Source: Gemmatimonadales bacterium | Lineage (GTDB): Bacteria; Gemmatimonadota; Gemmatimonadetes; Gemmatimonadales; GWC2-71-9 | Reading direction: 5' to 3' | DNA length: 64,000 nt | Assembly (NCBI GenBank): GCA_039794085.1 | Contig: JBDIWC010000009.1 | Span: 3,095 to 67,094, forward strand | Part shown: in pieces, positions 44,837-45,391 of the stretch | How the letters are laid out: each line of letters begins with the position of its first letter | Position numbering within the stretch: the stretch's first letter is position 1 | Notes under the pieces: model-generated | The model's database searches: none | Seen by the model: the letters and a program-made list of their open reading frames with translations, nothing else | Told to the model about the DNA's origin: nothing | Made by a program: the position numbers and the translations under genes

Positions 44837-45391
44837 CTATTTCCCGGCGATCCGATCGACCGCTTCCTGCAATTCCTGGTAGGCCGTCGGGTCGATTTCC
44901 CGGAAGGGACTCATCACATGGGCGATCGTCCCGGTGGAATCGATGACGAACAGCGTCCGGTTGTCGATCTTGCGATCGGGGAGAGCCGCCCCGTACCGGG
45001 TACCGATGAGCGCCTCCGGATCACTCAGGAACCGGAACGGGAAATCCTTCTCCGCCGCCCAGGAGGCCTGGTCCTCGGCTGCGTCCGCACTGATGGCGAG
45101 CAGGACCACGTCCTGGCCGCCGCGAAAGAGCGTGGCGTACTGATCACGGTACGCCTCCATTTGGATGGTTCAGCCCTTGGTGCGCACCCGGTAGAAGAAC
45201 GCGATCACCACCGTCTGACCCTTGAAATCGCTGAGCTTCACGGGGTTCCCCACACCCTCGCGCGTCGAGGAGACCAGGGTGAAATCGGGAGCGGGCGTGC
45301 CCACCGCCAGCGGCGTCAGGGCTTGCGCCACCGCCGGCGGTGCGCCGCCCGCGAGGGCCGTGAGGAGCAGCGCTCCGGTAACACGTTTCAT
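44837..45391 (-). CDS. Exported peroxiredoxin-like (AhpC/TSA) protein with in-frame UGA, probable selenoprotein (184 aa)
   Basis: Track ORFs 45170..45520 and 44837..45160 are in the same frame and joined by [13 protein letters not shown]...[24 protein letters not shown]...AISAD...FPFRFLSD...[18 protein letters not shown]; signal peptide ending AVA. Confidence 0.85.
45134..45155 (-). promoter_or_regulatory. Candidate bacterial SECIS hairpin
   Basis: mRNA GGCGUAC-CGUGAUCA-GUACGCC begins 14 nt 3' of the UGA (45172-45170). Confidence 0.6.

Follow-up and report, generated by a model that had tools for sequence, protein, structure and literature searches.

Does a pair of short open reading frames (ORFs) on the minus strand of a Gemmatimonadales genome represent two small genes, one broken gene, or a single gene whose internal UGA is translated as selenocysteine (Sec)? 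The locus lies in a 64,000-nucleotide stretch (the window) of contig JBDIWC010000009.1, assembly GCA_039794085.1, where genetic code table 11 yields two ORFs instead of one, 45170..45520 and 44837..45160. A first-pass annotation of the window had proposed that they encode one hidden protein, an exported peroxiredoxin with a single Sec at the peroxidatic position. That proposal is supported here by sequence comparison. Articles are cited by PMC number, for those portions of their text that were available.

One reading frame with a conserved UGA and a hairpin

Translation of the minus strand with TGA read as Sec (U) joined the two ORFs into one frame of 184 codons, as had been proposed, with the TGA at 45172-45170 as its sole interruption. 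An AGGAGG hexamer precedes the ATG at 45391 and favours it as the start over the upstream GTG at 45520. The features on which the argument depends are as follows, in window coordinates.

44837..45391, minus strand: Sec-peroxiredoxin gene, whole, by translation (ATG 45391-45389; 184 codons including UGA-Sec; stop TAG 44839-44837)
45396..45401, minus strand: Shine-Dalgarno-like hexamer AGGAGG, read directly, 4 nt upstream of the ATG
45320..45391, minus strand: predicted signal peptide, residues 1-24 (MKR, hydrophobic core, AQA), with cleavage predicted before Leu25 (by eye and Kyte-Doolittle window)
45191..45193, minus strand: Tyr67 codon (TAC), position -7 relative to Sec, the site of the peroxiredoxin motif Pro (translation, alignment)
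45179..45181, minus strand: Thr71 codon, catalytic Thr of TxxU; Thr or Ser in all 50 homologs
45170..45172, minus strand: in-frame TGA, Sec74, peroxidatic position; 41 orthologs have TGA in this column and 9 homologs have Cys; aligns with the peroxidatic Cys/Ser of BCP structures
45134..45155, minus strand: SECIS (selenocysteine insertion sequence) hairpin with a 7-bp stem, GGCGUAC (45155-45149), 8-nt loop CGUGAUCA (45148-45141), GUACGCC (45140-45134)
44957..44959, minus strand: Arg145 codon, conserved active-site Arg (NRTLFVID); motif present in all 50 homologs, aligning with the Arg of BCP 3drn

We examined conservation of the TGA in a sample of the order (61 genomes) and a sample of the phylum (151 genomes; match threshold E <= 1e-30). 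Each tally includes one unpublished genome (G016 and G099, one row each), on which no claim depends. Across the order, 50 of the 61 genomes had a best match interrupted by a single in-frame TGA; four others had, within that E-value range, an ortholog free of stops, and seven gave only weaker matches. The 50 homologs that we fetched included 41 of these 50 TGA forms; the other 9 had no stop. The TGA fell in one identical column in 41/41, in the context R-[TS]-x-G-U-T-[IVA]-Q-[ML], and Cys occupied that column in all 9 stop-free forms, which is the Cys/UGA alternation that the first-pass annotation had named as a check. The column was kept in orthologs down to 42% identity, and Cys stood there in 57/57 full-length database homologs. 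At the level of the phylum, a match was found in 111/151 genomes, with one TGA in 95 of 119 rows and a TGA form in 92/151 genomes. TGA forms occurred in six of the twelve Gemmatimonadota families sampled, and families f8-f12 gave no match at E <= 1e-30. A separate related-loci search with the single protein relied on query-specific peptide patterns and caught few true orthologs; it supplied mainly taxon titles and out-of-phylum Cys and Sec homologs.

Both forms can coexist. Cys and Sec forms were each present in G095, G170 and G017, and one relative has two copies in tandem, 18 nt apart, one with Cys and no stop and the other with a TGA (G121:C19:42113-43194). The best Gemmatimonadota tree contained eight Sec/Cys changes, just two of which were forced by supported branches, and the order of events that it suggests is weakly supported. 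A second, distant AhpC/TSA-like family (28-37% identity) also carries one in-frame TGA in many relatives (for example G018:C4:61236-61685, G030:C70:14755-15219 and G028:C21:6601-7038), and the two paralogs in the window's genome (C46:13138-13527 and C27:44436-44894) are stop-free.

The 7-bp hairpin with a G-containing loop that had been noticed downstream of the UGA was found at 45155-45134. It begins 14 nt past the UGA, and its loop spans +22 to +29, with G at +23 and +25; for bacterial SECIS elements the distance from UGA to loop is often quoted as roughly 16-37 nt. The hairpin belongs to the minimum-free-energy fold of the region (z = -2.1 against shuffles, with 4 of 200 shuffles folding equally well). 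That the frame and hairpin go beyond chance is concluded not from this single sequence but from the recurrence of both the TGA column and the hairpin in 41/41 Sec-type orthologs.

We aligned the 60 nt from the UGA in these 41 sequences (40 distinct). Columns 19-38 (GCGUACCGUGAUCAGUACGC) were invariant save for one C>U change in the loop. Codons 80-85 read GCG TAC CGT GAT CAG TAC in 41/41 (one CGT>TGT), even though CGT and GAT are rare in this 67% GC genome. Equally conserved residues outside the hairpin used two to four synonymous codons; Ala64, for example, was GCG in 21, GCC in 18 and GCA in 2, and Arg70 used four codons. In the 9 Cys forms residues and codons both varied freely across the hairpin stretch. 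RNAalifold predicted exactly the same 7-bp stem, in which six pairs are invariant and the outermost, 18-39, covaries (C-G 25, G-C 12, U-A 3, mismatch 1). Paired cells amounted to 99.6%, and to 4-53% once the partner was slid. RNA-level selection thus acts on the hairpin and is limited to UGA forms, and the position and the G-containing loop are as expected for a bacterial SECIS from the available text of PMC1088965. Gln77 (45161-45163) is the rare codon CAA in 37 of the 41 Sec forms, which suggests that the constraint reaches into the spacer between UGA and stem.

The exact UGA-plus-hairpin pattern (38 nt) was found in at least 119 stretches of species genomes. Of the 80 listed, 76 bore Gemmatimonadota titles, including Longimicrobiales, Gemmatimonas phototrophica and Gemmatimonas sp., and their outer pair was C-G in 27, G-C in 26, U-A in 17 and mismatched in 10; this sample may overlap the 41 sequences, as both come from species-representative genomes. 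The SECIS core occurs once in the window's genome. Two records with other titles, L171 (a 1.6-kb contig titled Phycisphaerae) and L173 (a 43-kb contig titled Acidobacteria gp6), bear the exact Gemmatimonadota signature, through either misbinning or gene transfer. Like the E. coli fdhF element and those modelled by bSECISearch (PMC1088965, in the part available), the window hairpin lies directly 3' of the UGA within coding sequence and has a small apical loop containing G; unlike them, its sequence is lineage-specific and matches no Rfam model.

The source genome (4.16 Mb, 115 contigs, 66.8% GC) holds all four components that the first-pass annotation had listed for checking. The tRNA-Sec was found by ARAGORN and by Rfam RF01852 (69.3 bits against a cut-off of 47), selA scored 531 bits, selB exceeded its cut-off with both N- and C-terminal parts matched, and selD scored 389 bits. 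The selD gene (G000 contig C4:72190-73110, locus L010) is a selenoprotein gene too, with an in-frame TGA at the U of its canonical HGAG-U-ACK motif and a hairpin GGCGCAG-GUC-CUGCGCC 24 nt past the UGA. This 7-bp stem, GGCG...CGCC with GU in the loop, suggests a resemblance to the peroxiredoxin SECIS, though at a different distance from the UGA. TGA is the commonest stop in the genome, ending 1159 of 1630 long frames, and the adjacent thrC also ends in TGA; there is therefore no genome-wide recoding of TGA. Judged from these comparisons, the locus is a real selenoprotein gene, whose UGA at 45172-45170 is very probably read as selenocysteine.

A peroxiredoxin without the motif proline

Sequence and predicted fold identify the product as a peroxiredoxin of the AhpC/TSA family, BCP/PrxQ type. 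A single Pfam domain, AhpC-TSA (PF00578), extends across the TGA from residue 30 to residue 158 (5.6e-27, 94.6 bits against a cut-off of 26). The closest solved sequences are archaeal BCPs, the best being 3drn (6.9e-11); their FYPKDDTPG-S/C-T segment aligns with the motif region here and their conserved Arg with Arg145. An AlphaFold2 model built on a 37-sequence alignment reached a pLDDT (predicted local distance difference test) of 90.5. In a Foldseek search against the PDB the top 30 matches listed were all peroxiredoxins (E about 1e-13), including Prx1, 1-Cys AhpE and Bcp, with TM-scores of 0.73-0.75 (normalised to the query) and root-mean-square deviations of 2.2-2.8 A. The active-site motif is T71-K-G-U74, which puts Thr at -3 and Sec at the N-terminus of helix 2, modelled as residues 72-83. 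The absence of any Cys, reported in the first-pass annotation, was borne out by the translation. Among the 41 Sec forms another Cys occurred in six, never at a shared position and in four of these six within the signal peptide.

The protein is probably exported to the periplasm via the Sec translocation pathway. We infer this from the n/h/c layout of the N-terminus; from the hydrophobic extension of 27-46 residues that precedes the APDF core in 50/50 homologs and ends in A-x-A or AQ-like sites; from residues 1-20, which are unstructured and of low confidence in the AlphaFold2 model; and from the PDB peroxiredoxins, which align only from residue 26-33 onward. Of the cleavable signal peptide claimed earlier, the layout and the AQA site were thus recovered, by eye and by hydropathy, and cleavage stands as a prediction.

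The earlier reading of Tyr in place of the motif Pro, with a distal Arg in NRTLFVID, agreed with the translation and alignments (Tyr67, Arg145). In the portions available, PMC3322552 calls the motif "absolutely conserved PXXXTXXC" and counts the Pro as one of four such peroxiredoxin residues, and PMC13188914 writes of a "highly conserved PxxxTxxU". We tabulated the residue at -7 in five samples.

Fetched Gemmatimonadota Sec forms, n=41: Y 17, F 19, P 3, S 1, I 1
Second Gemmatimonadota sample, Sec, 78 readable of 80 listed loci: Y 34, F 30, P 8, I 4, V 1, S 1
Fetched Cys homologs, n=9: P 9
Database full-length Cys homologs (from the best 120 hits), n=57: P 57
Out-of-phylum Cys homologs, n=65: P 65

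The out-of-phylum sample comprised 80 loci, of which 65 were Cys forms, 8 were TGA forms and 7 had no readable motif. All 8 TGA forms had a hairpin at the same place. At -7 two of them, from Gemmatimonadota, had Y and I; three had Val (Pyrinomonadaceae/Blastocatellia records); and three had Pro (titled Caldilineaceae, Bryobacteraceae and Pyrinomonadaceae). The Val form led to a second large clade of presumably exported Sec-peroxiredoxins in an Acidobacteriota class (titles Pyrinomonadaceae/Blastocatellia; loci L096, L103, L118 and L264-L293, genomes G181-G261). Its motif is FYVLAFTGG-U-TKEL, and it has its own covarying SECIS at the same offset and a conserved C-terminal Cys. An ortholog was present in 46 of 81 genomes of this class, with a TGA in 49 of 50 rows. 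Among 30 loci, 28 could be read at -7 (V 26, A 1, I 1) and two lacked the motif. The hairpins showed compensatory changes, such as GCG..CGC versus GCC..GGC versus GCA..TGC.

On the joint tree, supported branches (96) part the Gemmatimonadota from the Acidobacteriota Sec clades, and the nearest relatives of each are Cys/Pro or Sec/Pro forms; the Pro was therefore lost at least twice, both times on a Sec background. The best Gemmatimonadota tree also places three Cys+Pro groups within the non-Pro Sec clade, with weak branch support, which would mean joint reversals of Sec and non-Pro. Tests for correlated evolution on well-supported branches gave 2 and 5 independent pairs (sign test p 0.5 and 0.25, not significant). 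Because these tests are not significant and branch support is weak, the coupling of Sec to non-Pro is a well-motivated hypothesis and not a result. Selenocysteine might relax the need for Pro at -7, admitting Tyr/Phe in Gemmatimonadota and Val in the Acidobacteriota class while all Cys forms examined keep Pro; we put this forward tentatively, as a possibility that we would sooner doubt than assert. Sec may be what permits Tyr or Phe in place of the motif Pro. If the coupling is causal, the two phyla provide a natural double-mutant cycle (Cys/Sec by Pro/non-Pro) that would reveal what the Pro is for, be it tuning a thiolate, which a selenolate does not need, or guarding against an over-oxidation that selenium escapes. 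The contrast of Sec/non-Pro with Cys/Pro in two phyla is a ready test of the role of one canonical peroxiredoxin active-site residue.

Probable function, candidate reductant and alternatives

We consider it highly probable, from the comparisons above, that the gene encodes a periplasmic one-Sec peroxiredoxin of BCP/PrxQ type in which Sec74 is inserted via SelB and the hairpin and is resolved by a thiol. In the proposed mechanism, SelB with Sec-tRNA(Sec) would bind the hairpin 14 nt past the UGA and insert Sec74. The mature enzyme, from about Leu25, would reduce H2O2 or organic hydroperoxides, the selenolate attacking the peroxide with the aid of Thr71 and Arg145 to give a selenenic acid. An outside thiol would be needed to resolve this intermediate, as the protein has no second Cys; the most likely donor would be an exported TlpA-like thioredoxin (WCxxC) that receives electrons across the membrane via CcdA. 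Both the peroxidase activity and the identity of the reductant are predictions from sequence.

The donor was sought in the gene neighbourhoods of 30 relatives (loci with 1.5-kb flanks). In 16 of the 30 a tlpA-like gene (signal peptide, WCxxC, Redoxin/Thioredoxin_8) stood tail-to-tail with the Sec-peroxiredoxin gene, and in 14 of those 16 a ccdA gene (DsbD_TM) lay directly upstream of it. The window's genome has such a pair on contig C3, at about 124.0-125.8 kb (DsbD_TM 2.2e-44, Redoxin 1.1e-16, WCTIC motif, signal peptide). The first-pass annotation had held that there was no resolving Cys and that the external reductant was unknown; the first part stands, and for the second this pair is now a candidate. 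Because of the shared neighbourhood in 16/30 relatives, and with the precedent of PprX and TlpA (PMC3322552, as far as its text was available), a TlpA-like thioredoxin fed by CcdA is the best candidate electron donor, an assignment to which we give a little less than even chances. In four relatives (L025, L030, L036 and L037) the Sec-peroxiredoxin gene is preceded, on its other side, by a Thioredoxin_9 (PF14595) gene, of which G000 has a homolog on contig C29:18208-18774. Directly after the tlpA-like gene on C3, on the same strand, an ORF (L262:2162-2737) begins much like a signal peptide and matches AhpC/TSA weakly, below the cut-off (E 3.4e-4); its catalytic position has neither Cys nor TGA, and the ORF may represent a degenerate redoxin.

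Several observations weigh against the peroxidase reading or parts of it. Tyr67 stands where peroxiredoxins have the Pro of PxxxTxxC, and with one of the four canonical active-site residues gone a non-peroxidase redox role is possible. The top NCBIfam model, the Bcp-type thioredoxin-dependent thiol peroxidase NF006960, scored 65.8 bits, under its cut-off of 140, and the PrxU model NF040737 scored 55.6 bits, under its cut-off of 270. The signal peptide was judged by eye. The single-sequence fold of the hairpin is weak evidence, and an Rfam scan of the region found no SECIS family and just three sub-threshold chance matches. In the window's genome the Sec-peroxiredoxin gene sits between thrC and ettA, unlinked to ccdA-tlpA, and the arrangement in the relatives is convergent and forms no operon, so that it could be synteny inherited among kin genomes.

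The leading alternative is an exported Sec thiol-disulfide (selenosulfide) oxidoreductase, for example a CcdA/TlpA partner in cytochrome or copper-centre maturation or in sulfenic-acid repair. In its favour are the ccdA-tlpA neighbours in 16/30 relatives, the Bcp and PrxU equivalog cut-offs that were not reached, and the loss, in 38 of 41 Sec forms, of a Pro called absolutely conserved in the available part of PMC3322552. The motif, however, is TxxU with a single redox residue and not UxxC or CxxU; Thr/Ser and Arg are kept in 50/50; the nearest sequence and fold matches are all peroxiredoxins; and the closest Cys relatives carry the full PxxxTxxC...R set. We regard it as improbable.

Much less credible again is that the TGA is a true stop, leaving a pseudogene, an assembly error or two small genes (an exported peptide of 73 residues and, from ATG 45160, a fragment of 107 residues in the cytoplasm). 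Table 11 does yield two ORFs, gene callers do produce 105-119-residue fragments (62 of the best 120 hits), and Met78, four codons past the TGA, is conserved in 40/41; but Met78 is also present in 7 of the 9 Cys forms and is therefore a structural residue. One Pfam domain spans both halves, the TGA column persists to 42% identity with Cys as its substitute in homologs, RNA-level constraint follows just downstream in TGA forms only, the Sec machinery is complete, and independent assemblies agree. Equally remote is readthrough by other means (near-cognate Trp or Cys, with the hairpin serving mRNA stability or pausing), for which database record P0067 shows Trp, though probably by that pipeline's choice of code, at what is the family's catalytic Cys, where Trp would kill the enzyme, in a genome with a complete Sec system that selD uses too.

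Known relatives, database records and surroundings

The Sec-peroxiredoxin read here is already a known kind of protein, since 2001-2005, and the surprise is moderate. In the portions of the articles available, 43 sequences with TxxU were found under COG1225 in the Sargasso Sea set (PMC1088965), 12 came from genomes, where 5 changes from Cys to Sec were inferred (PMC1794560), and a 2026 review lists Sec-peroxiredoxins under PF00578/TxxU, citing PrxU (PMC13188914). As far as those texts show, the window protein shares with this family (COG1225/PF00578; PrxU of Eubacterium acidaminophilum) the AhpC/TSA fold, Sec in T-x-x-U, the conserved Arg, a SECIS after the UGA and widespread Cys homologs. It differs in its predicted export, in Tyr/Phe for the Pro of PxxxTxxU (PMC13188914), in forming a Gemmatimonadota-wide clade and in its 20-nt invariant SECIS. 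PprX of Caulobacter crescentus is described in the available text of PMC3322552 as an exported BCP/PrxQ reduced by TlpA, which is itself reduced by ScsB or DsbD. The two proteins are alike in BCP/PrxQ type, an N-terminal signal sequence is predicted here too, and tlpA-like and DsbD-family ccdA genes are present here as well. PprX, however, has Cys, the full PXXXTXXC and a resolving Cys, where the window protein has Sec, no Pro and no second Cys; and the TlpA link proposed here is drawn from gene neighbourhood. The 1-Cys BCP/AhpE structures (Sulfolobus Bcp1 3drn and Bcp4 3hjp; M. tuberculosis AhpE 1xxu) share the fold and the single redox-active residue, but they are only 24-29% identical, reside in the cytoplasm, use Cys and have the motif Pro.

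A full-text literature search, with subscription journals and supplements outside its scope, found neither a paper that describes a selenoprotein from Gemmatimonadota nor one on a Sec-peroxiredoxin that lacks the Pro. New here are the non-Pro residue at -7 in most Sec forms and the likely reductant. The variant features (Pro loss correlated with Sec in two phyla, the predicted envelope location, the putative CcdA/TlpA link and the phylum-specific SECIS) appear to us of moderate interest. With them, a mainly aerobic phylum would have in its cell envelope a peroxide defence that depends on selenium and is tied to the CcdA/TlpA reducing pathway.

The prediction that standard pipelines would split the gene was confirmed in a large protein collection, of which we surveyed the best 120 hits. 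Sixty-two were fragments of 105-119 residues starting M-[DNEKQH]-AYRDQYA, that is, the second half called from Met78, under names such as "peroxiredoxin", "peroxiredoxin Q/BCP" and "redoxin domain-containing protein". Full-length Cys forms made up 57, and one record (P0067) has Trp at the site. A protein of most sampled members of the Gemmatimonadota, a phylum widespread in soil, sediment and hot springs, is thus stored publicly as truncated fragments, and the exact 38-nt UGA-plus-SECIS signature would allow annotation pipelines to recover the gene. One Cys form, P0003, still encodes the SECIS-coded peptide AYRDQYA and may be a recent Sec-to-Cys convert.

Around the gene, thrB (42627-43535) and thrC (43532-44794, TGA stop) converge on it, and ettA (45566-47245) diverges from it. 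A promoter and terminator scan of the region gave no match, and one inverted repeat, which has no T-run, was seen between the convergent stops:

44800..44826, strand not assigned: GC-rich inverted repeat, possibly a shared terminator, between the stops of thrC (44794) and the Sec-peroxiredoxin gene (44837)

Reads with TGC or TGT at the Sec codon had been named beforehand as a finding that would speak against the selenoprotein. The TGA and the hairpin were unchanged in independently assembled contigs from 4 runs of 2 studies, and a related strain differed at 21 other positions of 623. No RNA run was among the sequencing runs listed as containing the locus, and the DNA runs are hot-spring and biofilm metagenomes.

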